A stretch of 64,000 bases of DNA from an uncultured Alphaproteobacteria bacterium (GTDB lineage Bacteria > Pseudomonadota > Alphaproteobacteria > HIMB59 > GCA-002718135). Where the stretch lies: positions 8,759 through 72,758 of the forward strand of contig CACJRM010000002.1 of NCBI GenBank assembly GCA_902595805.1. The letters run 5' to 3'. Shown here one piece after another: positions 21,140 to 41,107 of the stretch. Position 1 is the stretch's first letter. The number at the start of each line of letters is the position of its first letter. A program made the position numbers and the translations under genes. The notes beneath the pieces are model-generated. The model had not been told where the DNA came from. It was given only the letters and a program-made list of their open reading frames with translations, and ran no database searches.

Positions 21140-21556
21140 ATGAAAATTAGATTTTATATAAAGATTATAGTTGGTTTATTTATTGTTAAATTTGCATTTG
21201 CAGAAGTTATAGATGTCAATAATGAAGAAATAATAAAATTATCAAATCTTAATATTCCAATTGTAGATGTAAGAAGAAGTGCAGAGTGGGATCAAACTGG
21301 TGTTATTCCAAATAGTATTTTACTAACTTTTTTCGATGAAGAGGGGAATTATAATTTTGATGAATGGTACGAAAAATTACAACTAGAATTAAATATAACT
21401 GATCCAATAATCTTAATTTGTAGATCAGGAAAAAGATCCAAGGTAGTCGCTAATATGATAGATGAGAAATTCAATACTATTATTTACAATGCACAAAGTG
21501 GAATAAACTCTTGGATTAGTAAAAAATTAATAACTGTTGAACATCTAACCAATTAA
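21140..21556 (+). CDS. rhodanese-like domain protein (secreted)
   Basis: Signal peptide and active-site loop ILICRSGKRS. Confidence 0.75.
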   Translation: MKIRFYIKIIVGLFIVKFAFAEVIDVNNEEIIKLSNLNIPIVDVRRSAEWDQTGVIPNSILLTFFDEEGNYNFDEWYEKLQLELNITDPIILICRSGKRSKVVANMIDEKFNTIIYNAQSGINSWISKKLITVEHLTN

Positions 21557-22412: not shown

Positions 22413-23162
22413 TTATTGAATTCTATAAGATGCTTCTTTTAATAAGTTTTCCTCAGGCATCTTAATTTTTTTCTCATTCTTTCTTAATTCTATAAGACAA
22501 TGATCAATGAGTTCAATTTTAGCATTTAAAAATTTAATATTTTGTGGAATAGGGATGTGAATAGGGTATCCTTTGATAAACTCTACATGTAAGTCGTATC
22601 CACCCATATAAAATTCTTTTAAGATTTTACCTTTATTTGAGAGATAATTATTCGATGATTCATGAATAATGGCACTTGCTGTGGAATTATTTCTTTCAAG
22701 AGACTCAAATAAAGTATTATTTTTAATAATTTCCATTGTGTAGGGATAGAGTTCCAATTTTTTCATATCACTAAAGGATAGCTCTTTATCAAAAGGTGTT
22801 AATTGTAACGTTTCTAATCTTACATAATTGATAATTGCTGGTGCATCATCAAAAAGAGCAGCGTAAAGGCTTACAACTATCCTTGTTCCTGTAAAATCAA
22901 CTGTCGTAAGCTCATACCCACATAAACTCACCTCATCTTGTTCATCAAAAACAACTAAAGGATCAAAATAAAATGTTCTTTTAGGATATTCCTGAGCTTC
23001 CGTAATAATAAGTTTGTCATTTCCTTGGTCAAGGGGAAGTTCTTTTTTAATAAATTCTTTGGAACTTAATAATTGATCCCCTTTAGCAGCACCAGCTAGA
23101 AGGAGAACAATAATAAGGAGGGAGAATAGAAAAATTATAATTCTTTTGATAACTGGTGCCAC
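22413..23162 (-). CDS. hypothetical secreted protein
   Basis: N-terminal signal/anchor IIIFLFSLLIIVLLLAGAAKG. No family recognised. Confidence 0.5.
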   Translation of the reverse strand: MAPVIKRIIIFLFSLLIIVLLLAGAAKGDQLLSSKEFIKKELPLDQGNDKLIITEAQEYPKRTFYFDPLVVFDEQDEVSLCGYELTTVDFTGTRIVVSLYAALFDDAPAIINYVRLETLQLTPFDKELSFSDMKKLELYPYTMEIIKNNTLFESLERNNSTASAIIHESSNNYLSNKGKILKEFYMGGYDLHVEFIKGYPIHIPIPQNIKFLNAKIELIDHCLIELRKNEKKIKMPEENLLKEASYRIQ

Positions 23163-23623: not shown

Positions 23624-24469
23624 TTGCCTAAATTAATAAATACAAATATTTTTGTGGCACTGAGTCTAAAAAATATTCATTATAAAATTATAAAATTAAT
23701 CATTTTAAAACTCCTCTTAAGTGCCACACCTTTATTAGCTCATTACGAACTACCAAGAGAGATTGATTTAATGATGATAGAACATGATTTAAATAAATGC
23801 TCCAAAGGTAAAATTGATAGTTATTTTTTTCATAAAGAAAAAAATCCAGATTATTGGCTAGGAATCTATACTAGTTCTAATCTTGATTTAGAATGTTTAA
23901 GGGAACAATTTCAGAATAAGATTACTAATTACCCAGTTAATTTTCTAAACAACCCTAGGATAAAAGTTTCACATGATTTGAGCTATTATAAATCTTACAT
24001 TACAAATTTTAATAGAGTAGTTTGTGGTGAAAGATGCTATCTTGATGAAGATTCAATTTTATTTGTAGATGATAATTATTGGTACATCTATGATTTATAT
24101 AATTCTTATGGACACAAAGCGAATTTTATAAAAACTTTGGATAATAAAATCCATATTCAATTATTAGAGTCAACTCATATTAAAAATATTGTATTTGATA
24201 TTGTTACTAAAGATTTTTTATATCTTTATGATGGAATATTAGAATTTCATGACGATTATTATATTGCCACACATTCTAAAAGCTATTTTTATGGAGGAGG
24301 AGCCTTTTGGTATTCGGCTAAAAGAGATTATCAAAATAATATTTTAGAGTTAATTGATTTAAAAACCAACTTTTCAAATTGTGAAGATACAAAATTATAT
24401 TCTTGGTCTGGTCAATTATATGATTTTATTTTGGAAACTAATAATTTACAAAATTGCAGGGAGCATTAA
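23624..24469 (+). CDS. hypothetical secreted protein
   Basis: TTG start. Hydrophobic N-terminus. Y/N/D-rich. No family recognised. Confidence 0.5.
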   Translation: MPKLINTNIFVALSLKNIHYKIIKLIILKLLLSATPLLAHYELPREIDLMMIEHDLNKCSKGKIDSYFFHKEKNPDYWLGIYTSSNLDLECLREQFQNKITNYPVNFLNNPRIKVSHDLSYYKSYITNFNRVVCGERCYLDEDSILFVDDNYWYIYDLYNSYGHKANFIKTLDNKIHIQLLESTHIKNIVFDIVTKDFLYLYDGILEFHDDYYIATHSKSYFYGGGAFWYSAKRDYQNNILELIDLKTNFSNCEDTKLYSWSGQLYDFILETNNLQNCREH

Positions 24470-24738
24470 TGGAATCTTTATCAAGGGTTATTTTATTTTT
24501 AACATCCTATTTTATTGTTTTAGCTTTATCTTTTAGTATCAATATAGAATTTGAATATTTACAAAGTGGATTATTCTTATTCATTTCTATAATTATAGCA
24601 TCGTGGCTGTATTATTTACATTTTAAGAAAAAAGAAGCTCCAGAATTTCAAAAAGAAGTTTTGTATGTCATGTTTTTTCTCTGTCTTGTAACATCTACAT
24701 GGTCATTTAAATTAAATTATTTTCATTTGTATGATTAA
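24454..24738 (+). CDS. hypothetical small membrane protein
   Basis: Three hydrophobic segments. Overlaps neighbours on both sides. Confidence 0.4.
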   Translation: MQGALMESLSRVILFLTSYFIVLALSFSINIEFEYLQSGLFLFISIIIASWLYYLHFKKKEAPEFQKEVLYVMFFLCLVTSTWSFKLNYFHLYD

Positions 24739-25024
24739 TAATTTCTGGTTGTATTTCTTAATTACACCTGTTGTAGTCTCTATTATAGCTCTAAACTCTT
24801 TGTTTGTTCATAAAAGCCCAAGCACACCAGTATTTGAAAATGCTTTAGAATATTGTCAAAGTGTAGATAATAATTATGTTTATAGTGATCAAGGAACTGC
24901 TCAAGATATTTGTATCGATGAATATATGAATGCTCCCTGGGCATTAGAGTTAGTTATAAAAATATTCTTACTATTTGGATTTATTTTTATTGTACCACTC
25001 ATATTTTATTTGAGATCTAGATAA
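24731..25024 (+). CDS. hypothetical small membrane protein
   Basis: N- and C-terminal TM segments. Confidence 0.4.
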   Translation: MINNFWLYFLITPVVVSIIALNSLFVHKSPSTPVFENALEYCQSVDNNYVYSDQGTAQDICIDEYMNAPWALELVIKIFLLFGFIFIVPLIFYLRSR

Positions 25025-25029
25025 TAAAT

Positions 25030-25863
25030 TTACCATTTTAAATTTAACATTATATCAAAGGGCTTATAGGATTGTCTGACAATATTGATACTATAATTAA
25101 ATCCTTTAAATGTTTTTGAAAGTCTTTCACTTATTGATTCATTTTCTATAATTTTATTTATTTCCTCATTTGAATATTTCATGAGAACATAATTTGATGT
25201 TATTGTTTTACTCATAGAGTAATTGATATTATTTTTACCTTTTTTAGCAGCTAATAAAGTGTCGTTTCTATAGTTTCTTGAAATACTATTTATAAATGAA
25301 TGCATTAAAAGTGATAACTGGTTTTCTTTTTTTTCTAATTTTATTCTTTGTTCTTTTTCCTTATTTCTTATAGCATCTGAAGTAATTTCTCTTAGCTGTA
25401 AAATAAAATCATCATCGGACAGAGATATTATTTTATTATCATTTTCATTTAAAATATTTTGATTTTCCGTTTGAATATTTTTTAAAAAATATTCTTCTTG
25501 TCTTTTCTTCTTAAAATCTGGAAGTTCGTTAATAGGGGCGGTAGAAATGTTTCTTTCAAATAAGAAAAGAACATTTTTTAAATCACTTGGAAATATTTTT
25601 AGCAATTCTGTTTGATCAATATTTCTTTGACTATTTCCAATAGCGTAAGAATAAATATTTTCTTGATTGGTTGGATAAATGCGTATTGAACTTCTGATAC
25701 CTGGCTTTCCAAAAATAACATAAAGCCCAGGCCCTTCAGATGCCCTTACAAGCTTTACGTTACTATTTGAATTAATTGTTAAAAAGATATTCTCTATTTG
25801 CTGTTCTAATTTTGTAAAATTGTCAGTTATTTGCATTTCAATTAATAAATTATTTAATAACAA
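25030..25863 (-). CDS. hypothetical protein (last gene of minus-strand operon)
   Basis: 277-aa ORF (alternative start at 25834). No motif recognised. Confidence 0.55.
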   Translation of the reverse strand: MLLNNLLIEMQITDNFTKLEQQIENIFLTINSNSNVKLVRASEGPGLYVIFGKPGIRSSIRIYPTNQENIYSYAIGNSQRNIDQTELLKIFPSDLKNVLFLFERNISTAPINELPDFKKKRQEEYFLKNIQTENQNILNENDNKIISLSDDDFILQLREITSDAIRNKEKEQRIKLEKKENQLSLLMHSFINSISRNYRNDTLLAAKKGKNNINYSMSKTITSNYVLMKYSNEEINKIIENESISERLSKTFKGFNYSINIVRQSYKPFDIMLNLKW

Positions 25864-25895
25864 CCACTTTCAAAATTCAACAAAAAGGTTCGTTG

Positions 25896-26468
25896 TTATA
25901 TCCCTTTTGTATCAAACTCTATTTTCATGTTTTCTATTTCCAGTAACTCATCTTCATCATTATCTTCGTCAATTTCCATATTAAATTCAGGCCTTGGAAG
26001 CCTAGAGAGTGATATTTCTAGTGTTTTTAGAGTATCTGATGTTCCAAAACTAATTAAGTCAAGCTGCGTATCAAAATGATCTTGATTATCGATAAATTTA
26101 GCAAATTCTGGCTTGAGAGGGACTACTGTATCTGGCCTTTTACTGAAATGAATTGATTTCCATACATCGCTTCTTTCATGACTGTCCATTTCGTAAGAAT
26201 TCCAATATTTTTGATATAAATGCTCCTCAATTTGATTGGCTATATCTTGTGCAGCCCAAACAGGTATTAATTTCTTTGATTTAGCCGTAATAATATCAAT
26301 TTCTCCGGTTTTACCATCTTGAATAACAGTATAATTGTCAAAAAGATCATTTGCTAAGACAGGTACAATGGTAAAATGACTATCATTATGAAATAATTCA
26401 TGTTTTTCAATAATTAAATTTTGTTTTTTAATACTATTTCTAAGGCTTATACCAAACAAACAATCCAT
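25896..26468 (-). CDS. hypothetical protein with acidic C-terminal tail
   Basis: 190-aa ORF with an EIDEDNDEDELLEIE tail. No family recognised. Confidence 0.55.
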   Translation of the reverse strand: MDCLFGISLRNSIKKQNLIIEKHELFHNDSHFTIVPVLANDLFDNYTVIQDGKTGEIDIITAKSKKLIPVWAAQDIANQIEEHLYQKYWNSYEMDSHERSDVWKSIHFSKRPDTVVPLKPEFAKFIDNQDHFDTQLDLISFGTSDTLKTLEISLSRLPRPEFNMEIDEDNDEDELLEIENMKIEFDTKGI

Positions 26469-26473
26469 TTTTT

Positions 26474-26653
26474 CTATATTTCCCTTGTTATCACAGGTTT
26501 ATAGCCTGTTTCTTTATCCAGTTTCTTTTTATAGTACTCATAATCCATAAACATTACGGCGACTCCGCTTGCACAAATAGTAATCACAAGAGTGACGACT
26601 ATAATTGTCAAAAAATAGAAAATATTTCTGTCTAGTTCTAGATTAAAACGCAT
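26474..26653 (-). CDS. small single-TM protein (59 aa, below ORF-track cutoff)
   Basis: Minus-strand ATG at 26653-26651 and TAG at 26476-26474. Translation is MRFNLELDRNIFYFLTIIVVTLVITICASGVAVMFMDYEYYKKKLDKETGYKPVITREI. It fills the gap between flanking genes exactly (1-nt and 5-nt spacers). Confidence 0.4.
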   Translation of the reverse strand: MRFNLELDRNIFYFLTIIVVTLVITICASGVAVMFMDYEYYKKKLDKETGYKPVITREI

Positions 26654-26654
26654 A

Positions 26655-26960
26655 TTAAAAACCTGTTATCATTCGAAAGGTTAAACTGAGTGTAATAAAA
26701 ACACTCATAAGAAAGAATAGGGGGATGATACTTTTAGGCTCAAATAACATTGCCAATGTTTTCAAAATAAAATGTCTCAGAAATATTAGTCTTAAAAGGA
26801 ATTTTGAATAAGAAATATGCCAATAAATTTTTAAAAGATCATTAACCTTGAACGGAGAAAAATATTTCCAAAGACGCGATCCCTTTATGACATGATAACG
26901 AAATGAGCGGTCAAGCTTTGATAATTCTTTTCTTTCCTCGGTTGTTAGTAATTTTTTCAA
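26655..26960 (-). CDS. hypothetical protein with C-terminal TM segments
   Basis: TTG start overlapping the upstream TGA stop (TTGA). Basic N-terminus and a hydrophobic C-terminal half. Confidence 0.5.
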   Translation of the reverse strand: MKKLLTTEERKELSKLDRSFRYHVIKGSRLWKYFSPFKVNDLLKIYWHISYSKFLLRLIFLRHFILKTLAMLFEPKSIIPLFFLMSVFITLSLTFRMITGF

Positions 26961-28042
26961 TTATGACTTTCTATTTTTGGTATATCCAAACTTTCAATCC
27001 TTTTGATTGAATTTCCTGCAATTCCCTTAAGAGATCCATAAATATTAGAAGTACTTTTTACGAGAATGGATAATTCCTTTTCTCTTTTCTTCCATTGAGT
27101 TTGGTGCTGTCGTATTTCGCTATCCAAATCATCTTGAAGCTTCATGAAAGTACCAACAATGCTTTCCATCTCCTGGCGAAACTCGTGTCCGGTTACATAA
27201 TTATATATTAGTGATGTTTTATCAGTCTTATTAAGCTGTGTTCCAATTACATTATTTACTTCCAATATCATGAGACGAAGTGAATTGATGAGAAACTTGA
27301 ACTGTGTAAAGGTACAGATCCATACACCATTTAATTGTTTCCCGATTACATGATTTTTAGGGAGTACATCGGTAATAATAACAGCAATCATGCAACCGGA
27401 ATTTTTTGCGTCTTCTTTCACCTTATTGATCCATGAATTCTGAAAATCTTTCGCTCTTTTACTTTCAATACACATTTTGCCGGCAACATTGTCCTGAAAC
27501 ATAACTTCATGAATTACATCTGCACCTCTTGCACCTTTTTTAATTTCGGTAATAACATCTTCTGGAAATTCTTGACGAAGCCACTCCTCAATTTTTAATT
27601 CTTGCGCTTCTCCCTGAAGTTGTACCGATCCCTGGTTGGCACGTGTTTGCATTTTCATCATATCATTTTTCATTTGTTCAATTTGAATGTCTTTTTCTTT
27701 AATAGTTGTTTCTTTTTTATCGAGTTCTTCTGTTAGTTTTTCCTCATATTTTACTGCAATATCACTTTCCAATTCCTGTTTTTGACGCTCAAGAGATTTA
27801 ATTCTTGATTTCATTCTATTCTGATCAACAAGTTTCTTTGAATAATTTTCAAGTTCATGATCCTTCTCAAGAAGTTCATCAGAATATTCTTTTTCTATTT
27901 TTTTTCGAAGAGTAGTTTCATTTTCTTTTTTAAACTTTGTCATTTCTTTTGATACATACGTATCAATAATAGCCTGCTCAATATTGACGTCCTTGCTACA
28001 ATGGGGGCAAGTTATATGTTTATTATTATTCTTTTCTACCAT
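26957..28042 (-). CDS. DUF2130-family protein (N-terminal CxxC, long coiled coil, C-terminal PD-(D/E)xK-like domain)
   Basis: ITCPHCSKDV, then about 130 aa of E/K-rich coiled coil. This is followed by EEWLRQEFPEDVITEIKKGARGADVIHEV...GKMCIESKRAKDFQNSWINKVKED, the conserved DUF2130 core with a D...E-x-K arrangement. I prefer the ATG at 28042 (TAATG coupling) over the GTG at 28054. Confidence 0.75.
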   Translation of the reverse strand: MVEKNNNKHITCPHCSKDVNIEQAIIDTYVSKEMTKFKKENETTLRKKIEKEYSDELLEKDHELENYSKKLVDQNRMKSRIKSLERQKQELESDIAVKYEEKLTEELDKKETTIKEKDIQIEQMKNDMMKMQTRANQGSVQLQGEAQELKIEEWLRQEFPEDVITEIKKGARGADVIHEVMFQDNVAGKMCIESKRAKDFQNSWINKVKEDAKNSGCMIAVIITDVLPKNHVIGKQLNGVWICTFTQFKFLINSLRLMILEVNNVIGTQLNKTDKTSLIYNYVTGHEFRQEMESIVGTFMKLQDDLDSEIRQHQTQWKKREKELSILVKSTSNIYGSLKGIAGNSIKRIESLDIPKIESHN

Positions 28043-28146
28043 TAAAAAAACCACTCAATAATGAAGTAGATAACCACTACAAAACCAACAAGAGATATAA
28101 TGACAGAGAGACAGCTACCAAATAAACCAAAAATAAAATTTAACAT
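28042..28146 (-). CDS. 34-aa hydrophobic micro-ORF (candidate TM peptide)
   Basis: Translation MLNFIFGLFGSCLSVIISLVGFVVVIYFIIEWFF. Its ATG overlaps the upstream TAA by 1 nt (TAATG), and its TAA overlaps the downstream ATG by 1 nt (TAATG). Confidence 0.3.
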   Translation of the reverse strand: MLNFIFGLFGSCLSVIISLVGFVVVIYFIIEWFF

Positions 28147-29099
28147 TATAGTTCATTCCTCATTTGTTTAGAAAAACAGGTAAAGTGTATAATCTTGTCA
28201 TCAAGCATTAGAATTGTTGCACAAATATCATTTGTATTAATTGTAAACAGATTGCCCAATCCGGAATTCTTACATTGCTTAGCAAGAGAATTATCAGCAT
28301 CATGAATAATTTTCTTTGCATCATCAAGACTTGGTTGATTATTGTTTCGATTTTTTCTTTCGATTGCATCGAGCGCATAACTTTTAAGAAGTTGTGGGTA
28401 TAAAGAAGCAAACAATTGATGACTTGAGAATAATTCAAAACCAAGAACACAGTTACCTATGGCAAAGATACAGCCAACTGCATTCTCAGGCATCGTTAGT
28501 TCTTTTTCAAATTCTGCTAAAATATCTTCCTTATTTTTATAAATATCCTGCATACTCTCACTGGAAGAGTAGTCATTAAAGCTTGAGAATTTTCTATTTA
28601 TTTGTTCCCAGGTTTGTTGTTGATCAGCAGATTTATCATAACTTTCATTTGAAGACTCATTTGCTCTTTGACTCATTGTTTCCATTTTGGAAAAACGTGC
28701 CTTGGCAAACATTGAAGAGTCTCTTGAGGCAAATTCTCTGTCAGTTCTACTCCAGCGTCCTCTTTCACTACATAGAACGCTAAGTTTCATTGTGCTTGTT
28801 TCTGGAATAAGAGTTGAAACAGTAATAATTCTATTTTGTTTTAGTTTTTTACCAGTAATTGTCTGACCGTCTATAATAAATACTGGTGTCAAATTTCTAT
28901 TATGAACATTTAACGAGGGGACAGAGCCTTGGTCAGAAATTTCAGATACCTCTAAACTTTCATCATTTATAGCCTGATGAAATGTGATCAGATTATCAAG
29001 GTTATTTCTTCCAATAATGGGGAATACACTTAGGTTTTTATAATTTTTACAATTATCAATTAGGGTTTCCTGAAGAGTAGTATTTTGTTTGGTTATCAT
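28146..29099 (-). CDS. DUF6569-like protein (first gene of minus-strand operon)
   Basis: Pattern LSVFPIIG...LEVSEISDQGSVPSLNVHNRNLTPVFIIDGQTITGKKLKQNRIITVSTLIP...LSVLCSERGRWS matches my memory of the DUF6569 conserved core. The family name is recalled, not searched. Confidence 0.55.
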   Translation of the reverse strand: MITKQNTTLQETLIDNCKNYKNLSVFPIIGRNNLDNLITFHQAINDESLEVSEISDQGSVPSLNVHNRNLTPVFIIDGQTITGKKLKQNRIITVSTLIPETSTMKLSVLCSERGRWSRTDREFASRDSSMFAKARFSKMETMSQRANESSNESYDKSADQQQTWEQINRKFSSFNDYSSSESMQDIYKNKEDILAEFEKELTMPENAVGCIFAIGNCVLGFELFSSHQLFASLYPQLLKSYALDAIERKNRNNNQPSLDDAKKIIHDADNSLAKQCKNSGLGNLFTINTNDICATILMLDDKIIHFTCFSKQMRNEL

Positions 29100-29190
29100 T
29101 CTTTTCCTTTTCTGGTATGAAGAACAATAATAAAATTTTTAATCTTCTCTAGTGGTGGAAAGAATTTTTTTTTTTGCTATTGTATATTAA

Positions 29191-31356
29191 ATGATAGAAA
29201 AATTTCAGATTAGCAATTTCAAGGGATTTAACGAGCCACTCAAAATTGATATAGCTCCAATCACTCTTATTTTTGGACCAAATAGTGCTGGTAAATCCTC
29301 AATATCTGATAGTCTTCAAATGATAAAATATAGTGGTCCAAATAGTCTTCAAACTTATTTAGAAAATAAAATTGATTTAGGATCAAATGAAGAAATTTTA
29401 TCAAGGCAAAACACTCCCATAAATAAAAATATCGAATATGCTTTTACTCTTAAATATCCAGAAATAATTAAATCTAATTTTAACGTATTAAATTTAACTA
29501 AAAAAATAAAGATTACTAAAAATTTTAAAATAAATGAATCTGGTTTTTTTAGTATTAACAAAATTTCAATTTTTACAGATAACGAAATTTTTTTTTCAAT
29601 AGATCTTACTGAAAGTAAGAGTGGAGAATTTGATTATGAGTGTAAATTAAATCAATTTTTAGAAAATGATGATAAATTAAAAGAATATTTAAGATCTTTT
29701 GAATACTATGGAAATAAAGAATTATTTTCAGGTTTAAAAAATCAAATTAAGTTCATAATCGATAATAGAAAAAAAGATCTATCTGAGTGGAAAAATAAAA
29801 AAAATAAATTTGAAAATGAATTAATAGAATTAAATAAACAATTAAAAAATGTTTTGGATTACTCAAAATTAATGGATGAATTTTATGAGTTTTATAAAAT
29901 AATTCCAAATATCAATAAAAAGAATAAGGAGCTTAGAAATATATTAAATATATTTATTGAGAATGGTTTAGAAAATTATGAAATTGATGTTATTTTTAAA
30001 TTATTATTAAATATCAAAAAACCTGTAAAAATTTCTATTTCCGATACTTTTGTAAAAGAATTTATAAATTCTGAAAATTATGACCCTCTCATACTTGACT
30101 ATTTTGGAGAGAACAAAGATAGCGCTACAATCGGACTTTTAATCGAAAATATAACTCAAAAATTAAAGAAAATATATTCTGATTCACTGATTACTAAAAC
30201 AAATAATGGATATATTTGGGATGATACAAATTTAAAAACTTACACAATTCCAAGATTAAGAGCGGAAAGTATAAGGTTAAATAATGAATATGATAAATTG
30301 ATTAATCTTACAAATAATGGTGAAAAAATGAGTTTTACAGATCAATTTGCTGATTTTGACAGCAATATTTTAATGAATTATTTAGATATAATAAATAAAC
30401 TCATCTTAAATTCAGAAAAACTAGAAAGTAATAGAAAACCTATAAGTTATGAAAAAGAATTAGATAAATTTAATATTAATTTTTTCAAAATTATAAAAAA
30501 TGATTTTAAGAATAATTATCATTTAAAAGTTGAAGCAAAATATAAGGATAGATTGAATTTTAAATATTTTAGAAATAAAAATACATTTTTGGATTTTTTA
30601 AATATTTCTATTGATAATTTTTTTCCTAACATAGAAGATTTATTATCAGACTATGATCAATTTATTGAAGATTCACTAAATGAATTTACTTTCGTATCAT
30701 GTTATAGAAACTATGACAGGGTTTATCGATCTATTAAAAAATCACAATCATCAATAAATGATATAACTAATTCAACAGCTGATTTAGTTGAAACTTTATC
30801 AAGGGATAAAAAACTACTTGATAAAATAAATTCATGGTTTGAAAAATCAACACTACAATCAAAAATATCGATAGAAGAAACATCTCAAACAAGAACATTA
30901 AATGTTTTTGAAAGAGGTAGTGATGTCAAAATTAATATAGCTGATGCTGGATCAGGAATAAGAAATTTAATTCCAATAATTGCTGTATCATTGTATTCAG
31001 AAACTAAACAGAATAATATTCAAACTTCTAAAATTGAATATAAACCAATAATTGGACTCGAGGAACCCGAAGTTAATCTTCATCCAAGACTACAAATAGA
31101 TCTTGCTTCTTTCATAGCAGACTTTTGTAGATCAAAAAATTTTTTAATCGAAACACATAGTGAAATAATGATGAGAAAAATTCAACAATTAATAAGAGAT
31201 AAAAACTATCACCTATCAAATAAAGATGTAAAAGTTTATTGTGTAAGAAAAAATAGTGATGGTCATTATGTAGATGAAATAAAAATAGACGAAGATGGCA
31301 AATTTCTTGATAAATGGCCACATGGATTTTTTAAAGAAAGAAGTCAACTTTTATAA
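29191..31356 (+). CDS. ABC/SMC-like AAA ATPase with C-terminal DUF3696-type domain
   Basis: Walker A at residues 29-36 (GPNSAGKS, in IFGPNSAGKSSI). About 550 aa of low-complexity/coiled insert. Signature-like ADAGSGIRNLIPI, Walker B IIGLEEPEVNLHP, H-loop IETHSE, C-terminal KWPHGFF. Confidence 0.8.
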   Translation: MIEKFQISNFKGFNEPLKIDIAPITLIFGPNSAGKSSISDSLQMIKYSGPNSLQTYLENKIDLGSNEEILSRQNTPINKNIEYAFTLKYPEIIKSNFNVLNLTKKIKITKNFKINESGFFSINKISIFTDNEIFFSIDLTESKSGEFDYECKLNQFLENDDKLKEYLRSFEYYGNKELFSGLKNQIKFIIDNRKKDLSEWKNKKNKFENELIELNKQLKNVLDYSKLMDEFYEFYKIIPNINKKNKELRNILNIFIENGLENYEIDVIFKLLLNIKKPVKISISDTFVKEFINSENYDPLILDYFGENKDSATIGLLIENITQKLKKIYSDSLITKTNNGYIWDDTNLKTYTIPRLRAESIRLNNEYDKLINLTNNGEKMSFTDQFADFDSNILMNYLDIINKLILNSEKLESNRKPISYEKELDKFNINFFKIIKNDFKNNYHLKVEAKYKDRLNFKYFRNKNTFLDFLNISIDNFFPNIEDLLSDYDQFIEDSLNEFTFVSCYRNYDRVYRSIKKSQSSINDITNSTADLVETLSRDKKLLDKINSWFEKSTLQSKISIEETSQTRTLNVFERGSDVKINIADAGSGIRNLIPIIAVSLYSETKQNNIQTSKIEYKPIIGLEEPEVNLHPRLQIDLASFIADFCRSKNFLIETHSEIMMRKIQQLIRDKNYHLSNKDVKVYCVRKNSDGHYVDEIKIDEDGKFLDKWPHGFFKERSQLL

Positions 31357-31358
31357 TT

Positions 31359-32504
31359 ATGATTTTCAATTATGCATTAACACATCACTGTTGTGAAGAG
31401 TCTATATTTGATGAAACAGTCTATCAAAATTTTATATTTTTATTTGAAGAAGTTATTAATCACAATATTATTTTGATAGTAGATAATGAAAATTATTTAA
31501 TTGATAAATTAAAAAAATCTATACTAACTCATATAGATAATGACGAAAATGATCATATAATTAACTTAATTAGTGAATTAGAGGATCAAAATAAACTTTA
31601 TAAACATAATTATAAATATGATGAAAATGATATTGATTTATACTTAGATTCAATAGTTAAAAAAAATATAAATCTTGATGCAATATTAGTTGATTATATT
31701 GAAGAAAAAAATTTTATGAAAGCAATTCCAATTCAAAAATTTAATAAAAGACATAAATTTGATGAGGAAAGAAGAAAAATAAGTAAATCTGGTTTAAAAC
31801 TTACTGATTTTAATATTAAACAATTAGATAAGCATTACGAAAGGCTTACATGGGACTCGCCAGTTTTTTATTATTATGATTATAATTTGGGAAGTGGGGG
31901 TTTAAAAGATTATGAAATCAAAAATCTAAAATCTATAACTTATAATAATAAAAATTATATTTACTTACCTGGTGGAATTAAAAATAAGCAATTAGAGAAA
32001 TTTAAAGCAGGCTTTACTTCATTAAAAAGAAATATAGAGGAAATATATAAATATTTTAATAAATCTAAGAGGATAACAATAAATATTTATACTCCACAGC
32101 CAAATAAAATTTACAAAAATTTATCTTTAGAAGAAAGAATAGAAGCTTACGAAAAAAATAGGCGAATGCTAGATTTTCTAAACAACAATATATTTGATGA
32201 ATTAAATAATGAAAATATAGAATTTATTCTCTATTTTTACGATTCACTTATGAATGAAGACAGTAAATTTGGATCTTCTGAGCACAATAGAATATTTTAT
32301 TCATTAAGCTCTAAACCATTAGATGTTGCAAAAGGACTTGATATTTATGATGTACCCTCAGGTGTAATTCAACAGGGTAAGTGGCGATTTATTTCAGATG
32401 ATAAAGATGAGATTTATGAAGAAATATTACAAAAAAACCCTAGAATATCTAAAAAATATGAAGAAAAAATAAATCATTTAATATTATCTAGGCCAAGTAC
32501 TTGA
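31359..32504 (+). CDS. hypothetical protein, partner of the ATPase
   Basis: Starts 2 nt after the ATPase stop. 381 aa with no nuclease, HNH, TOPRIM or other motif that I can recognise. Confidence 0.6.
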   Translation: MIFNYALTHHCCEESIFDETVYQNFIFLFEEVINHNIILIVDNENYLIDKLKKSILTHIDNDENDHIINLISELEDQNKLYKHNYKYDENDIDLYLDSIVKKNINLDAILVDYIEEKNFMKAIPIQKFNKRHKFDEERRKISKSGLKLTDFNIKQLDKHYERLTWDSPVFYYYDYNLGSGGLKDYEIKNLKSITYNNKNYIYLPGGIKNKQLEKFKAGFTSLKRNIEEIYKYFNKSKRITINIYTPQPNKIYKNLSLEERIEAYEKNRRMLDFLNNNIFDELNNENIEFILYFYDSLMNEDSKFGSSEHNRIFYSLSSKPLDVAKGLDIYDVPSGVIQQGKWRFISDDKDEIYEEILQKNPRISKKYEEKINHLILSRPST

Positions 32505-32554
32505 ATTTATTTTAAAATTTATTATTATAATATTTATAGGCATCGCAGCATGGT

Positions 32555-33433
32555 ATGTATATTTATCCTGTGGGTCGGCTGCAGACCCCAGAGCCTTTAA
32601 AAAATAAACTTTGGAGACTATCCAAAACTAATTCTATTTCACCTGTTGAAGAGTGCGATTTAATAAATAGATGTATTAAGTTTAACTGCAAAAAATCTTA
32701 TAATAAACTTTATTTTTCTCATATTAAAATAGTAAATAAATTTGCATTAAAATTCTCAAAATCCTTTAATGACTTATTTTATGAATTACAGGGGGAAGGT
32801 TTCAAGGGATTATCTCATGCAATACAAAAAATAGATCCTAAGAAAGCAAGATTATCAACCTACGCTCCTTTCTGGATAAGTTATTATATAGAAACATATT
32901 TTTTACAGAATAATTTTGGGAACATAAGTATAGGAGTAAGTAGTGTTGAGAAAAAAATATTTTATTATCTAAGAAATTTAAAAATTGATCATAAGGAACT
33001 TAGTGAAGATGAAATAATCAAAATTGCAAAAAAAAATAAAGTAAAAACCAATCTTGTAAAAGATATTCTTTCATTTGTCAGTGTTAGAAATAAGGAAAAT
33101 AAACAAAAAGATTTAAGTCAGAATTTTGAAAATTCCTCATCATCTAGAACAATCCTAGATAATCTCGCTTATGAGATGAATATAGATCATAATTCATATG
33201 ATGAGACTGATAAAAATATAGACTTGGAAAAATATATGAGAAAAATAAAATCATGGCTATCATGTATAAATAGCAGAGACAGAAGAATATTTGAAAAAAA
33301 ACACTTAATGGAAAAAACATACAATGAAATTGCAAAAGAAGAAAAAATCTCTTTTCAAAGAGTAAGCCAGATAGACAAAAAAAACTTTAATGAACTAAAA
33401 AAATACATGATGGACTATAATTATGCTGCCTAA
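32555..33433 (+). CDS. sigma-70 family RNA polymerase sigma factor, RpoH-like
   Basis: Region 2 LQGEGFKGLSHAIQKIDPKKARLSTYAPFWISYYIETYF. RpoH-box-like ISIGVSSVEKKIFYYLRNLK (compare RpoH VKVATTKAQRKLFFNLRK). Region 4 HTH TYNEIAKEEKISFQRVSQIDKKNFNELKKY. Confidence 0.7.
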   Translation: MYIYPVGRLQTPEPLKNKLWRLSKTNSISPVEECDLINRCIKFNCKKSYNKLYFSHIKIVNKFALKFSKSFNDLFYELQGEGFKGLSHAIQKIDPKKARLSTYAPFWISYYIETYFLQNNFGNISIGVSSVEKKIFYYLRNLKIDHKELSEDEIIKIAKKNKVKTNLVKDILSFVSVRNKENKQKDLSQNFENSSSSRTILDNLAYEMNIDHNSYDETDKNIDLEKYMRKIKSWLSCINSRDRRIFEKKHLMEKTYNEIAKEEKISFQRVSQIDKKNFNELKKYMMDYNYAA

Positions 33434-33466
33434 CATGCTATATTTTTTATCAAAAAAGGAAATATC

Positions 33467-33847
33467 ATGGATGCAAACTATACTAAAGACGAGATTAAAA
33501 TACGTATCCTCGTATTACTTGCCATTGCTGACAAAGAATTTCATGAAAGCGAAGATAAGATGATTAAAAATATACTTAAGGAGCATCAAATAGAATCTAA
33601 AAACTATGATGTTATTAGAGACCAAGTATTAAACTCACCAGAAACTTTTGATGAAATTTGTGCAAATTCACTTAAACAAATTAAAGACAGTGATGAACAG
33701 CAGGATTTGTTAAAAATCCTGTTTGTCTTATCGATGGCAGATTATATTCTTCATGAAGATGAAATTAGATTTATTGAACTTTGTGCAAAGGAATGGGGTG
33801 TCTACGGAGACTCTTTTAAAGAAATGATTAAGGACAATAATGGTTAA
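33467..33847 (+). CDS. TerB-like domain protein
   Basis: Two helical repeats with the TerB-type signature: LLAIADKEFHESEDKMI and VLSMADYILHEDEIRFI. Confidence 0.5.
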   Translation: MDANYTKDEIKIRILVLLAIADKEFHESEDKMIKNILKEHQIESKNYDVIRDQVLNSPETFDEICANSLKQIKDSDEQQDLLKILFVLSMADYILHEDEIRFIELCAKEWGVYGDSFKEMIKDNNG

Positions 33848-35168
33848 AGAATTACCTCCTAGTGCAGCTTCAATGATAATGGCTCTAAGAGCTTTTGGTT
33901 ATACACCAGAGTCTGCCATAGCTGATATCATTGATAATTCTATCAAAGCTAATGCTAGGAACATTGATTTTCAAACATATGATGGAGGCATAGATAAAGC
34001 AAAAAATTATGTTTCTATTTGCGATGATGGAGATGGCCTGAACGATAACGAAATTGTTGAGAAGGCCATGCCTTGGGGTGCGAAAGATGAACTACGTGAA
34101 GAAAAAGATTTAGGTAAATTTGGATTTGGTTTGAAATCGGCCTCTTTATCTCAATGTAAAAAATTAACAGTAATTTCAAAGGGTAGTCAGGGTAAAATCA
34201 AACACTATACTTGGGATGTAGATCATGTTCAGACACATGACAAATGGGAAATTACTGATGATTATTCTGATAGTTTTCAACCACATTTTGATAGACTTGA
34301 TAAAATGAAAAGTGGCACTGTAATCCTCTGGCAAAATCTTGATAGATTATATGAAGCCGAAAATTATGATAAGAAATGGCAACACCGAATTTTAGGAAAG
34401 GTAAGAAATAAAGCTAAAGCACATATTTCAATGATCTTTCATAAATATGCTGATGAAATAAATTTTACATTACAAGGGAATCTCTTTCCTATCAAACCTT
34501 GGAGCCCGTTTTATGAAGATCATATGCATACAATTGCATCTCCAGCTCAAAAAATTCTACACAAAGAGAGTACAACCCTAGTTCAGTCTTTTATATTACC
34601 AGAAGAAAAATATTTTTTAGATGAAGAAAATTTTAAAGGGCCAACTGGTAATTCTACTGATAGACAAGGTATATACGTATATAGAAAAAAAAGATTAATA
34701 GTTCCAGGAGGTTGGCATAATATTACTTCGTCAAGAAATAAACCCATAATTAGTAAAGAAAAATATAACCGTTTAAGAATTATGGTTGATTATGATGGAA
34801 AGAATGACAATGATTGGAGACTTGACGTGAAAAAAGACAGTGTAATTATTCCAGGTTATGTAAGTAATCAACTTTCATCAATAGTTGCGCATCAATTAGA
34901 TATATTACAGAAAGAAAATTATAAAGTAAAACCTATAAAAAAACAGGGAGCTGTAACACCATGGCAAATTATAAATAATTATGGAAAAATAAGTGCAAAA
35001 ATTGATAGACAAAATGAATTAGTAAAAAAAATTATGGATTCAGAAAAATTGAATAGAGATGAATTTGAAAAATTTATGAAAGTTATTGAAACAACAATAC
35101 CACTTGAAAATATAGACTTTAATAATCACAATTTTGATGATGAAGATACAATAGGAGAAAATAGTTGA
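33840..35168 (+). CDS. GHKL-superfamily ATPase (HATPase_c_3 / MORC-MutL-like) of an R-M-associated module
   Basis: N-box IADIIDNSIKANA, G1 box ICDDGDGL, G2 box GKFGFGLKSAS. Confidence 0.8.
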   Translation: MVKELPPSAASMIMALRAFGYTPESAIADIIDNSIKANARNIDFQTYDGGIDKAKNYVSICDDGDGLNDNEIVEKAMPWGAKDELREEKDLGKFGFGLKSASLSQCKKLTVISKGSQGKIKHYTWDVDHVQTHDKWEITDDYSDSFQPHFDRLDKMKSGTVILWQNLDRLYEAENYDKKWQHRILGKVRNKAKAHISMIFHKYADEINFTLQGNLFPIKPWSPFYEDHMHTIASPAQKILHKESTTLVQSFILPEEKYFLDEENFKGPTGNSTDRQGIYVYRKKRLIVPGGWHNITSSRNKPIISKEKYNRLRIMVDYDGKNDNDWRLDVKKDSVIIPGYVSNQLSSIVAHQLDILQKENYKVKPIKKQGAVTPWQIINNYGKISAKIDRQNELVKKIMDSEKLNRDEFEKFMKVIETTIPLENIDFNNHNFDDEDTIGENS

Positions 35169-38092
35169 GTAGCGAAGATTATAAAAGAGTTAGAAAAAAT
35201 GTTCTTGATATTCTTAAACCAGATGATGATGACGATAATAATGTTGTAGAAGAACATGTAATTGAAGAAACTGTTGATCAATTATTTAAAATGCGTCCCA
35301 AATGGAGAGAAACAGTAGATAAAAAACTTCTTATAAAAGATTTATACGAGACACTTTTAGTAAAAATAAACGGAGAAGAAATTATTTTTGCAGATAAAAA
35401 AAATAATAGACATAAACCATGGCTAGATGAAAAAATTAGTAAAATAAAGTGGAAATTTTTTGACAGATATATGGAGCATCTTGAAAATTCAACTGATATT
35501 GCCCCTAGAGCTCTAGCAAAAATTAAATCTATGAGTGCCAAAATTCTATCGAACATTGAAGATCCTGAAAGAGAAGATCTTCAGTGGGATGTGAGAGGGA
35601 TGGTTGTTGGAGAAGTTCAGGCTGGCAAAACAGCAAGTTATATCGCCCTAATTAATAGAGCTATAGACGCAGGTTACAAACGCATTGTAGTTTTATGTGG
35701 ATTAAATAATGATTTACGATCCCAAACACAACAAAGAATAGAGGAGGGCGTAATTGGAAGAGACAACTCCCAGACTGGAGGTATGAACAAAATTATAGGT
35801 GTTGGAAATATAGAGGGGTATGATGATATTCAAAATAAAGTTCAAATACATACTACAAGAGATGACGCAGGTGATTTTAATGTAATAAGAGCTAGAACTT
35901 TTGCTCCAATAGGGGATGCACCAGTTGTTTTAATTGTTAAGAAAAATGTATCTGTTCTCGAAAATATTCTTTTATGGATAATGAGAGATGCTGCCCCATC
36001 ATTTGATGAAAATACCTCATGGGATTGGAGTGAAAGATTATTTAAAGACATCAAAGCAATGTCAATTGATGGAAACTCTCTTAAAACATACGCTCCAAAA
36101 GTGAAAAATAAACCATTACTTCTAATTGATGATGAGTGTGACCAAGCATCAGTAGATACAAATCCTGATCATTCAGTAATTAGTGGAGAAGAAGCAAACC
36201 CTGAACATGATCCAACAAAAACAAATAAGCTTATAAGAAGAATTTTAAAAGCTTATGATAAATCTTCTTATGTTGGATATACCGCCACTCCCTACAGTAA
36301 TGCTTTTATATCAAATGATTTAAAAACAGATAAAGAGGGTGCTGATATTTATCCTAGGGATTTCATAATCAATTTGCCTTCACCAAGTAACTACATTGGA
36401 GCACTTAGAATATTTTCTGATGAAGAAAAAATACCAAATCTAATAAATAATATAAGTGACTACATTGATGAAAACATAGATCCTAATAAAGAGCCTAATG
36501 GATGGATGCCACCTTTTCATAAAATAACTCATAAACCAAAATATAAAAATAATCAGTCTATTCCTCCTAGTTTAGAGAATGCTATAATTTCTTTTTTAAT
36601 ATCTTGCGCAATTAGAAAGTTAAGAGGTTATGATAATGGTAATAGCATGCTCGTACATGTATCAAGGTATGTGCCAGTATCAGAAATTGTAGCAGATCAA
36701 ATACAGCAATATGTAACAGATTTAGAGAGTATAATTGATGGTAATGAATTTTATTTAAACAAAGTTAATAAAATCTATGAAACAAATTTTAAAAATAAAC
36801 TTAATAATGAATACAATATTGGAAGAGAAGAGGTTAATTTTGATAATATAATAAAAATTATTCAACAAGATATTGAAATTGGAAAAATAGTCGTTGAGCT
36901 TGTTAATGGATCTGCTTTAAGTAAAAAAGAATATGATAGATCGCTGAGAGCAAAAAAGAATATCATTGCAGTTGGCGGTCAACGTCTTTCAAGAGGACTT
37001 ACATTAAAAAGTCTAATGATTAGTTATTTTTTAAGAACTGCAAAAAGACCTTTAACAGATACAATGACACAAATGGGTAGATGGTTTGGATACAGACCTC
37101 TTTATGATGATTTATGTAAATTATATTTAACAGGTGAGTCAGAACATAGTTTTAGAGAATTTGCTGAAAGAGATTATGAATTTAGATCAAAAATTGAAGA
37201 TATGAACGACCAGGAAAGAACACCAGAACAATACATTCTGATGATTGAAAGAGATCCTCATTACGAACTTACTTCTAAAAGAAAAACGAAATATACTGCA
37301 AATGTTCAATTAGATTTTAGTGGCTGGTTTGCTCAAACAGTAGTTTTGCACAAAGAAAATAATAAAGAAGAGTTAAATAAAAAAAATAGGGAAGCTGTTA
37401 AAAATCTTATAAAAAATATCGGAAAAACTTCAGACAAAAGAGATAAAAATATTAATTCATACCTTTGGAAAAATGTAGATAGTAAAAAAATAATCGAATT
37501 TTTTAAAAATTTTCGACATCATAAAGATAATAGAAAAGTCAGTCCAGAGAGCTTTAATCATTACATTGAAAGAATGAATAAAAGAAATGAATTAAATTTT
37601 TGGTCAGTTGGAATAATATCATCAAGTGACAATGTTAAAGAATTATTAATTCATGAAGATTTAAAAGAATATAAAATAAAACCTCATGTTAGAAAATCAA
37701 ATAATCCAGAAAAAGATGATGAGTCAACACATCGAATTCAAACACTATCTTCTGCAACTCATGAAAGTTTTGATTTAAATGATGAAGAATATAATGCAGC
37801 ATTAATAAAATGGAAAGAGTCAGGTGGTGAAGAAAAAAAAGAATCAAAAAGGCTATATTATAGATGGGCTAGAGGTTCAGCCTTTCTTGAAAATATTTAC
37901 TCCGATAAAAATGACAATGGTATCCGCCCCTTACTCCTAATTTATCCAGTAATTGGTAAACCAAATGATGACACATCAAAAGAATTTCCAATGATTGGAT
38001 TGGCAGTTGCGTTTCCAAAATTAGGAAAAAGTGATCCTAAACAATACATTATGTCATTAGATCAAAAAAAGAGGTTGTTTGAAGAAGAATAG
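35165..38092 (+). CDS. Z1-domain protein (SF2 helicase-like ATPase)
   Basis: Walker A GEVQAGKTAS, DExx box LLLIDDECDQASVDT, motif III GYTATPYSN. Z1 signature GGQRLSRGLTLKSLMISYF...DTMTQMGRWFGYRPLYDDLCKLY. Confidence 0.8.
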   Translation: MSSEDYKRVRKNVLDILKPDDDDDNNVVEEHVIEETVDQLFKMRPKWRETVDKKLLIKDLYETLLVKINGEEIIFADKKNNRHKPWLDEKISKIKWKFFDRYMEHLENSTDIAPRALAKIKSMSAKILSNIEDPEREDLQWDVRGMVVGEVQAGKTASYIALINRAIDAGYKRIVVLCGLNNDLRSQTQQRIEEGVIGRDNSQTGGMNKIIGVGNIEGYDDIQNKVQIHTTRDDAGDFNVIRARTFAPIGDAPVVLIVKKNVSVLENILLWIMRDAAPSFDENTSWDWSERLFKDIKAMSIDGNSLKTYAPKVKNKPLLLIDDECDQASVDTNPDHSVISGEEANPEHDPTKTNKLIRRILKAYDKSSYVGYTATPYSNAFISNDLKTDKEGADIYPRDFIINLPSPSNYIGALRIFSDEEKIPNLINNISDYIDENIDPNKEPNGWMPPFHKITHKPKYKNNQSIPPSLENAIISFLISCAIRKLRGYDNGNSMLVHVSRYVPVSEIVADQIQQYVTDLESIIDGNEFYLNKVNKIYETNFKNKLNNEYNIGREEVNFDNIIKIIQQDIEIGKIVVELVNGSALSKKEYDRSLRAKKNIIAVGGQRLSRGLTLKSLMISYFLRTAKRPLTDTMTQMGRWFGYRPLYDDLCKLYLTGESEHSFREFAERDYEFRSKIEDMNDQERTPEQYILMIERDPHYELTSKRKTKYTANVQLDFSGWFAQTVVLHKENNKEELNKKNREAVKNLIKNIGKTSDKRDKNINSYLWKNVDSKKIIEFFKNFRHHKDNRKVSPESFNHYIERMNKRNELNFWSVGIISSSDNVKELLIHEDLKEYKIKPHVRKSNNPEKDDESTHRIQTLSSATHESFDLNDEEYNAALIKWKESGGEEKKESKRLYYRWARGSAFLENIYSDKNDNGIRPLLLIYPVIGKPNDDTSKEFPMIGLAVAFPKLGKSDPKQYIMSLDQKKRLFEEE

Positions 38093-41103: not shown

Positions 41104-41107
41104 TTTT

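Follow-up and report, generated by a model that had tools for sequence, protein, structure and literature searches.

Iyer et al. 2022 (PMC9503650; Viruses 14:1977) noted an absolutely conserved Cys and Gln in the ARPP domain (ARPP-1, PF20208, also named DUF6569) and predicted that it acts as an enzyme on ribose/sugar moieties within conflict systems centred on ADP-ribose; the contexts reported there are ARG-centred systems and two-gene pairs of ARPP with HIRAN, WYL or a deacetylase. The DUF2130 family (PF09903) was classed as PD-(D/E)xK by Steczkiewicz et al. 2012 (PMC3424549), with its function given as not known. Here, we describe a compact operon of seven minus-strand open reading frames (ORFs) at positions 25030-29099 of a 64,000-nt stretch of alphaproteobacterial DNA (assembly GCA_902595805.1, contig CACJRM010000002.1; hereafter the window, within which all operon coordinates are numbered), which combines an ARPP gene and a DUF2130 gene with interleaved genes for tiny transmembrane (TM) proteins.

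We read this operon as a predicted clade-specific, membrane-associated, nuclease-based module against mobile elements or phages, built on a new set of ARPP partners, and give this reading a probability of roughly 0.42. Both the ARPP domain and the general kind, predicted conflict systems that centre on ARPP and count nuclease effectors among their variable components, have been described before; what is new is this set of partners, the lack of ARG, phosphatase and WYL, and the conserved interleaved micro-proteins. An earlier annotation of the same DNA, the original prediction, had known of no characterised function for any component and had taken the whole as a good candidate for an undescribed system. 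The first claim needs revision, as DUF6569 is ARPP, whose role had been predicted by Iyer et al. 2022 (PMC9503650), and the second survives for the partner set, the kind of system having been predicted before.

Operon architecture

The operon reads, from 5' to 3', ARPP, m34, DUF2130, p101, p59, p190 and p277, all on the minus strand and with ORF coordinates that we checked on the sequence. The lead gene (28146..29099) encodes a 317-aa ARPP-1 protein (Pfam E = 5e-73), the predicted cytoplasmic sensing or enzymatic component, and is followed by m34 (28042..28146), which encodes a 34-aa single-TM micro-protein recognised by its ORF, the TAATG at both of its ends, its conservation and its hydropathy. 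The third gene (26957..28042, with an alternative GTG start at 28054) encodes the 361-aa DUF2130 protein (Pfam E = 1e-51), the predicted DNA-cleaving effector. Next come p101 (26655..26960), a protein of about 100 aa with a TTG start and two C-terminal TM helices, and p59 (26474..26653), a 59-aa single-TM protein; both are recognised by hydropathy, p101 also by conservation and p59 by homologues in most lineages. The last two cistrons encode soluble, lineage-restricted accessory proteins, p190 (25896..26468), acidic in composition, and p277 (25030..25863, probably 25030..25836), identified through its homologues.

Read from the sequence, the ARPP stop and the m34 start overlap in TAATG, the m34 stop and the DUF2130 start in a second TAATG, and the DUF2130 stop and the p101 start in TTGA. 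Gaps of 1 nt and 5 nt precede p59 and p190, and the gap ahead of p277 is 32 nt, or 59 nt with an ATG start at 25836. The seven-cistron layout, with its coordinates, overlaps and gaps, is exactly as the original prediction had it; its DUF6569 and DUF2130 assignments are borne out by the Pfam matches, and its three small TM proteins by hydropathy (one TM segment in m34, two in p101, one in p59) and by their conserved positions.

A second, identical copy of the locus is present in assembly GCA_902558555.1 (contig L001; loci are referred to below by such L numbers), whose annotation calls neither the 34-aa nor the 101-aa ORF. Searches of the seven products against NCBIfam and PHROG returned nothing useful, and the five products other than ARPP and DUF2130 have zero matches in Pfam, PADLOC, NCBIfam and PHROG. 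The GC content of the window is 23-33%, and promoter and terminator scans were uninformative in this 28% GC DNA (59 promoter-like sites versus 65 expected).

The ARPP and DUF2130 proteins

The lead protein scores 246.5 bits against a Pfam cut-off of 27, its residues 17-309 cover profile positions 7-297 of 297, and a homologue of it carries the RefSeq name 'DUF6569 family protein'. All 15 positions that are invariant among 85 ARPPs are retained (E53, G58, G78, Q88, R90, V108, C110, E112, G114, R115, W116, F123, Q160, W164 and G209), with C110, Q88, Q160, E53, R90, E112, R115 and W116 present in 85/85 and a motif E112-x-G-R-W. Judged by its sequence, the product of the lead gene is a genuine member of the ARPP-1 family. 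The AlphaFold2 (AF2) model of it is beta-rich with helical inserts and confident, with a predicted local distance difference test score (pLDDT) of 89 and a predicted template modelling score (pTM) of 0.90, and a Foldseek search with this model against the PDB (to April 2026) and BFVD found no relative (best E 0.04-0.06, template modelling score ≤0.17). That a confident model has no relatives among solved or viral predicted structures is consistent with ARPP still being an orphan fold.

The DUF2130 product scores 176.1 bits against a cut-off of 26.7 and is a member of a short (361-382 aa) marine subclade. It has an N-terminal CPxC knuckle, a coiled coil and a C-terminal PD-(D/E)xK domain, and no TM segment of its own; the coiled coil, which had been put at about 130 aa, is present and measures about 110 aa in the alignment. 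Invariant in the subclade alignment A2 are C12/C15, E145/E148/E152, a QLxGE helix, D175 and E193-S-K195, so that the CxxC and the D...ExK core of the original prediction are recovered as CPxC and D175...E193-x-K195. We therefore predict a PD-(D/E)xK nuclease with an intact catalytic core, and it is the completeness of this core that makes DUF2130 the likely effector.

With respect to distant relationships, a comparison of the DUF2130 profile with PDB sequences gave coiled-coil noise only and no detectable relation to solved structures, and the DUF2130 product has zero Pfam matches to RmuC (PF02646) at E ≤0.1. The possibility that DUF2130 is a diverged RmuC was rejected, with an hhalign probability of 0.1% between the DUF2130 profile and E. 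coli RmuC; the architecture alone is alike. A frameshift fusion of m34 and DUF2130 (at the TTTTTTTAATG junction, with DUF2130 in the -1 frame) was also rejected, as the T-run is unconserved and the frame differs in L094 and L002.

Conservation and selection

Relatives were collected by exact-protein look-ups, by an ARPP-alignment scan of 185,579 species-representative genomes and by a DUF2130-alignment metagenome scan, and the eight lineages compared are the window, L013, L176, L177, L012, L006, L094 and L002/L014. All seven cistrons are found in the same order in the window, L013 (ARPP 74% identity) and L176 (68%). At least six are present in L177 (ARPP 75%) and at least the first four in L006 (71%), with the contig ending there in both cases, while L012 (92%) has six and an unrelated opposite-strand gene in the place of p277, L094 (62%) has the five from ARPP to p59 followed by unrelated genes, and L002/L014 (62%) has four, from ARPP through the TM protein of about 100 aa. 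The seven-gene order thus recurs across three lineages at 47-75% identity, and all eight lineages, including those at only 62% identity, keep the order of the first four genes together with their overlapping or abutting junctions. The conserved core consists of ARPP, m34, DUF2130 and p101, usually with p59, and p190 and p277 are accessory. Of the seven genes that had been proposed as one unit, four to five form the core, and p190 and p277 fall outside it, being lineage-restricted and elsewhere missing or replaced.

The ratio of nonsynonymous to synonymous substitution rates (dN/dS), for which synonymous sites are near saturation across the lineages compared, is 0.07-0.19 for m34, 0.10-0.30 for ARPP, 0.05-0.10 for DUF2130, 0.18-0.61 for p101, 0.21 for p59, 0.05-0.20 for p190 and 0.15 for p277. 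Purifying selection acts on all seven ORFs, the 34-aa micro-ORF included, and 25030-29099 is a genuine co-translated operon in which all seven ORFs are coding.

A sceptical view would be that the operon is no single unit and that these are co-oriented neighbours in a gene-dense genome, of which only some cooperate. In streamlined marine genomes even unrelated genes are closely packed, the last three cistrons can be dispensed with (absent from L002, partly so from L094, and with p277 replaced in L012), p190 and p277 are near-orphans, and a gap of 32-59 nt lies ahead of p277. With the core order and its junctions kept in 8/8 lineages, and the full order in three, at the identities given above, we regard this view as highly improbable.

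Small membrane proteins and accessory cistrons

The m34 protein has one strong TM segment (Kyte-Doolittle (KD) hydropathy 2.94) and is 34 codons long in all eight lineages, with junctions that overlap or lie within 1 nt and with 66-97% identity at unchanged length in L002, L006, L012, L013, L094, L176 and L177. The p101 protein has a basic N-terminal half (18 K/R) ahead of its two TM segments and is encoded directly 3' of DUF2130 in every lineage of the clade with sequence there (30-97% identity). For p59, which has one TM segment and a conserved juxtamembrane motif MDY(E/Q)YYK, homologues are found in L012, L013, L094, L176 and L177 (42-100% identity), and it is absent from L002/L014. Neither kind of small gene is a family-wide trait: a small hydrophobic ORF after ARPP was rejected as such at 0/77 distant ARPP loci, and a small TM ORF after DUF2130 at 4/69 loci, which with a single exception belong to the marine subclade.

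The presence of three small, conserved hydrophobic proteins in a defence island raises the possibility of a membrane toxin or an abortive-infection system, in which m34, p101 and p59 would kill by depolarisation, with ARPP and DUF2130 as sensor or accessory, or in which the genes form a toxin-antitoxin-like set. In size and hydrophobicity, m34 is like type I toxin peptides, which are repressed by an antisense RNA and expressed apart from adjoining genes. The stop/start overlaps, on the other side, imply constitutive co-translation in fixed proportion, which suits subunits or anchors and not a repressed toxin; no antitoxin-like partner or antisense feature was identified, the small TM ORF after DUF2130 is specific to the clade, and the complete catalytic core argues for DUF2130 as the effector. 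We consider a membrane toxin quite improbable, and the tight translational coupling leads us to regard the TM proteins as stoichiometric partners or anchors rather than as stand-alone toxins.

Both accessory proteins have a narrow distribution. The p190 protein (37 D/E versus 20 K/R) has a conserved acidic tail with the end FDTKG(I/L), occurs in L012, L013, L176 and L177 and is absent from L094 and L002; an exhaustive HMMER search found only 3 relatives among 1.84 billion representative proteins. The p277 protein is present in L013 and L176, replaced in L012 by the unrelated opposite-strand gene, absent from L094 and L002, and has only 3 homologue clusters among 5.8 billion proteins. Its ORF exists at 277 aa as originally described, but translation more probably begins at the ATG at 25836, which gives 268 aa: this is the length of the source assembly's gene call and of the closest homologue clusters, which span the 268-aa form end to end, and the L013 homologue is alignable only from residue 6 of the 277-aa ORF. 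The AF2 model of p277, from a four-sequence alignment, is weak (pLDDT 68, pTM 0.37), too weak for the fold search, which gave no match, to carry meaning.

Extent of the ARPP-DUF2130 pairing

The scan of 185,579 species-representative genomes confirmed at least 563 ARPP loci. Among the best 80, just three are window-like (92, 74 and 62% identity), and the next best is at 34-35%. DUF2130 was found within 8 kb of ARPP at 0/77 distant ARPP loci, ARPP was found beside DUF2130 at 0/77 other DUF2130 loci (≤56% identity to that of the window), and ARPP stands upstream of DUF2130 only in subclade members that are at least 60% identical. A single small clade of low-GC marine Alphaproteobacteria accounts for all occurrences of the pair. 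The co-occurrence of DUF6569 and DUF2130, which the original prediction had set as its test, is therefore conserved in this clade and missing from all loci of either family that we compared beyond it.

The distant ARPP loci show ARG with R-P phosphatase (including a fusion), WYL-WCX, MerR-type helix-turn-helix (HTH), AbiEii and Schlafen-type helicase contexts, of which the ARG, R-P phosphatase and WYL-WCX contexts agree with Iyer et al. 2022. A natural 711-aa ARPP-ARG fusion in a Chromatiaceae metagenome-assembled genome (L022:7929-10064) confirms the published link between both domains. The proposal of one dominant downstream effector for ARPP in general was rejected, as 36 same-strand neighbours are heterogeneous.

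None of the usual ARPP partners was recovered here. ADP_ribosyl_GH has zero matches among the Pfam-scanned genes at 21649-47226, and tblastn with two ARG proteins found nothing in the window or the clade loci. R-P/DSP phosphatases were not detected in the operon and its scanned neighbours, nor elsewhere in the window or at the clade loci, and the same stretches yielded no Macro/NADAR protein and no Nudix-type regulator. Homologues of WYL and MerR-type proteins, present at distant ARPP loci, are missing from the window and from the clade. A plain rhodanese gene (PF00581, annotated on the identical contig L001) lies at window 21140-21556 on the plus strand, about 3.5 kb past the operon end and among metabolic neighbours; it is probably coincidental, though ARPP is named for a rhodanese-phosphatase association.

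DUF2130 in other genomes and a possible repair role

The DUF2130 family has more than 4,800 matches. In four metagenome loci (L009, L121, L125 and L160), the gene immediately upstream of DUF2130, and co-oriented with it, encodes a HerA (DUF87) ATPase, and this pairing recalls HerA-NurA and HerA-based defence systems. AAA_15/OLD-TOPRIM ATPases adjoin DUF2130 in L109, in L123 and on an Aliarcobacter plasmid. On this plasmid (Aliarcobacter butzleri, NZ_CP104379; L173, 4662-9868), DUF2130 is directly followed by a Gabija-like pair, a GajA-like AAA_15 and OLD-TOPRIM ATPase and a UvrD-like helicase, and by a methyltransferase, and on a Sulfurimonas plasmid (L175, 4680-7611) it lies upstream of a gamma-glutamylcyclotransferase and a reverse-transcriptase-like gene. 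In these two plasmid loci, DUF2130 possibly has accessory roles in known defence systems that have so far gone unrecognised.

Closer to the window protein, a small-membrane-protein theme emerges in the marine subclade. The nearest non-ARPP relatives of the window DUF2130 (46-56% identity) adjoin an exonuclease I-like or a HerA gene. In those with downstream sequence (L009, L095 and L096), a homologue of the 3-TM protein p94 (window ORF 24454-24738, plus strand) is encoded directly after DUF2130, on the same strand; L095 also has homologues of p97 and p249, and its DUF2130 start is overlapped by a TM/coiled-coil ORF. In the window, positions 23624-25024 of the plus strand hold a convergent cluster of three membrane-protein genes, p281, the 3-TM p94 and the 2-TM p97, with p249 nearby at 22413-23162 (minus strand). 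Because p94 homologues, joined in L095 by those of p97 and p249, adjoin DUF2130 in non-ARPP relatives, this set may belong functionally with DUF2130. In the subclade, DUF2130 was therefore associated with small membrane proteins before it was linked to ARPP, which makes ARPP and m34 look like later additions. The p101 and p94 proteins, both of about 100 aa with TM segments and encoded after DUF2130 in different lineages, are not homologous as judged by an hhalign probability of 0.2%, and this candidate relationship was rejected.

These wider contexts bear on a housekeeping or repair explanation, in which the operon would encode a split, RmuC-like, membrane-tethered nuclease, with ARPP acting on sugar lesions (abasic or ADP-ribosylated), that merely sits at the edge of an island or tRNA hotspot. 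RmuC itself consists of an N-terminal TM segment, a coiled coil and a nuclease domain. Outside the clade, most DUF2130 genes are solo amid housekeeping genes; the nearest non-ARPP relatives lie beside an exonuclease I-like gene, of which no homologue was found in the window; and the association of DUF2130 with p94/p97-type membrane proteins is older and wider than the ARPP pairing. DUF2130 also has the lowest dN/dS of the operon, and the operon is much stabler than the adjacent ATPase half, which is swapped in L012. From the ARPP side, Iyer et al. 2022 (PMC9503650) suggested an analogy with SRAP and described ARPP with HIRAN, a DNA 3'-end-binding domain. A repair role is opposed by the very patchy occurrence of the ARPP-DUF2130 form (the 3 of the best 80 ARPP loci), by the constant position of the operon inside a defence island, by its variable 3' cargo with tRNA scars behind the operon in relatives, and by the other ARPP contexts, which are conflict systems. 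The hhalign probability for RmuC given above and the occurrence of DUF2130 on plasmids beside Gabija-like and reverse transcriptase genes point the same way, and on balance we find a repair role unlikely, while taking it seriously.

Defence island and divergent ATPase

Across a 91-bp intergenic region, the operon is divergent from an AAA_15 ABC ATPase gene with a DUF3696 tail (29191-31356, plus strand), which matches NsnB (5e-35), PDC-M55A (5.5e-40) and AriA in PADLOC. The gene for p381 (381 aa) begins 3 nt after it, in the NsnC position, and is followed by genes for a sigma-70 region-4 protein and TerB (29191-33847 for the whole plus-strand set); p381 has no family or PADLOC match, and no plasmid homologues of it were found. 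Farther on, window 33840-43309 (plus strand) encodes MzaB (HATPase_c_3), MzaC (Z1), MzaD (DUF4420) and MzaE (AIPR), then Vsr, EcoRII-C and a Dcm C5-methylase, and by these domain assignments holds a complete Mza-type candidate defence system. A Sir2-family protein (44831-45553, minus strand) and a phage-type integrase (46027-47226, plus strand) are encoded on the far side of the Mza/Dcm block, and this pair possibly marks the other island boundary. The defence-type island and the divergent ABC-type ATPase system named in the original prediction are both recovered, the former with its AAA_15/DUF3696 ATPase, sigma-r4, TerB, MzaB-E, Vsr, EcoRII-C, Dcm and integrase genes. The Pfam scan of the neighbouring genes (21649-47226) revealed no gene for a ParB-DUF262 NsnA protein, and the ATPase-p381-sigma-TerB set may represent a variant of the Menshen type that uses another sensor.

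An AAA_15-type ATPase gene stands back-to-back with ARPP in 8/8 lineages, with p381 and sigma-r4 wherever the contig reaches and TerB in all of those except L176. The two halves have evolved differently. Between L012 and the window the ARPP arm is 92-99% identical, and the ATPase, p381, sigma, TerB and MzaB/C only 24-41% (L012:1-7500 versus 29191-38092). The synonymous divergence (dS) between the two is 0.03-0.09 for DUF2130 through p190 and 0.23 for ARPP, with the ATPase at about 35% identity, which places a recombination breakpoint at the ARPP 5' end, and the L012 plus-strand half looks like an allelic replacement of a defence module. Compared with the ARPP arm, both the ATPase and p381 are evolving far more rapidly.

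The shared intergenic region contains a 21-nt block, TTCTTTCCACCACTAGAGAAG (29144..29164, minus strand), which is unique in the window (0 expected by chance), is kept in the window, L013, L094 and L002, and is absent from L012 and L006, which carry other variants of the ATPase. It is a candidate shared operator/promoter, possibly for the sigma-like factor of the island. At the opposite, variable 3' end, an intact tRNA-Arg(CCT) gene lies just beyond the operon in L094 (8665-8741) and an identical 41-nt tRNA-Arg fragment right after the last cistron in L013 (12021-12061), which suggests an integration or recombination scar; no tRNA genes or tRNA-Arg fragments were found in the window.

The constant presence of the ATPase raises a composite explanation that is compatible with a nuclease-based defence module: the operon would be one arm of a system with the NsnB-like ATPase, p381, sigma-r4 and TerB, Menshen-like and lacking NsnA, to which the ARPP arm, under shared regulation, would contribute the sensor function, the nuclease effector or both. 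Consistent with this are the back-to-back arrangement, maintained even in L012 with its 24-41% variant half; the covariation of the 21-nt block, conserved in four lineages, with the ATPase variant; and the AAA_15/OLD ATPases beside DUF2130 in unrelated loci and on a plasmid. The ATPase, moreover, matches NsnB/PDC-M55A and has the DUF3696 tail that docks effectors in Menshen, and the scanned neighbours contain no gene for the ParB-DUF262 sensor. Less consistent are the different evolutionary histories of the arms, with a recombination breakpoint between them, and the fact that the ATPase already has a downstream partner, p381, in the NsnC position, itself lacking a PADLOC match or a plasmid homologue. 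Furthermore, AAA_15 ATPases are common in defence islands, and the adjacency may be positional. Taken together, these points make the composite explanation doubtful in our judgement.

Proposed function and significance

Returning to the operon as a membrane-associated, nuclease-based module, the sensor, nuclease and membrane-effector logic of the original prediction is plausible as a hypothesis. In a possible scheme, ARPP, as a cytoplasmic Cys/Gln enzyme-like protein, would recognise or process a ribose, ADP-ribose or sugar moiety on invading nucleic acid, or alternatively would sense a nucleotide-derived signal. Translational coupling would then fix the proportion of ARPP to DUF2130, which would cut DNA as the effector, and the tiny TM proteins would hold or gate the complex at the inner membrane, as an in-trans counterpart of the in-cis anchor of RmuC. 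The physical complex, the membrane tethering, the substrate, the direction of signalling and the defence phenotype are those that we infer.

Several observations weigh against such a module. None of the seven products matches any PADLOC-DB v2 model at E ≤0.1 (zero families), whereas the neighbours match NsnB/PDC-M55A and MzaB-E there, and the operon has never been seen apart from the ATPase/Mza island. The defining partners of ARPP (ARG, R-P phosphatase and WYL) are absent here, so that the link to ADP-ribose is borrowed from distant relatives at about 30% identity. The synteny is in part vertical inheritance, because the lineages are fairly closely related, and DUF2130, as the most conserved gene of the operon (dN/dS 0.05-0.10), is no fast-evolving effector. 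To these we add the mostly solitary, housekeeping settings of DUF2130 elsewhere and the exonuclease I-like neighbours of its nearest non-ARPP relatives, both set out above.

A bolder version would make ARPP, m34, DUF2130 and p101, with or without p59, a self-contained undescribed defence system, in which ARPP would detect a sugar or ADP-ribose mark on DNA, or an alarm nucleotide, and license a membrane-held nuclease, with DNA being cut at entry. We hold this version to be unlikely; if true, it would give ARPP its first defined biochemical role.

The orphan-fold ARPP domain is widespread, and its part in ADP-ribose-linked immunity has been proposed purely from gene neighbourhoods. The stripped-down context described here, with one ARPP, one predicted nuclease with an intact active site and tiny membrane proteins, offers a compact and tractable test-bed for the action of ARPP and its possible control of a nuclease. 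The m34 gene, overlooked by standard annotation, is a clear case of a membrane micro-protein of 34 aa that is conserved and under selection. The locus also hints that DUF2130 nucleases act with membrane partners and have been repeatedly recruited beside defence ATPases. These points are to be read within the narrow distribution of the operon, its uncultured hosts and functions that we infer throughout.

Comparison with known systems

Menshen (NsnABC) is composed of a ParB-DUF262 sensor (NsnA), an ABC ATPase with DUF3696 (NsnB) and an inPIN plus effector protein (NsnC). The likeness to Menshen, to which the ABC-ATPase defence systems Gabija, PARIS and Septu are related, concerns the neighbouring operon, with its NsnB-like ATPase and the position of p381, and none of the seven minus-strand proteins matches a Menshen component.

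With the ARG-centred ARPP systems of Iyer et al. 2022 (PMC9503650), the operon shares an ARPP with all invariant residues and a defence-island setting. Restriction-endonuclease-fold effectors are among the variable partners reported there. Unlike the published ARPP neighbourhoods (ARG, HIRAN, WYL and deacetylase), the partner in the window is DUF2130, and interleaved TM micro-proteins have been described for no ARPP context and are found at 0/77 distant loci.

Other DUF2130 proteins (PF09903/COG4487) belong to the same family and share the catalytic core, with occasional HerA or AAA_15/OLD/GajA-like neighbours. A more distant, architectural likeness is that to RmuC (E. coli YigN), a protein that limits recombination, in which a long coiled coil is likewise followed by a PD-(D/E)xK domain and which is associated with the membrane. 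RmuC carries an N-terminal TM helix in cis, whereas the window operon encodes TM proteins in trans, flanking the nuclease gene, and DUF2130 differs further in having a CPxC knuckle and no TM segment and in showing no detectable sequence relationship. Finally, RmuC is a solo housekeeping gene, whereas the DUF2130 of the window is operonic with ARPP in a defence island.

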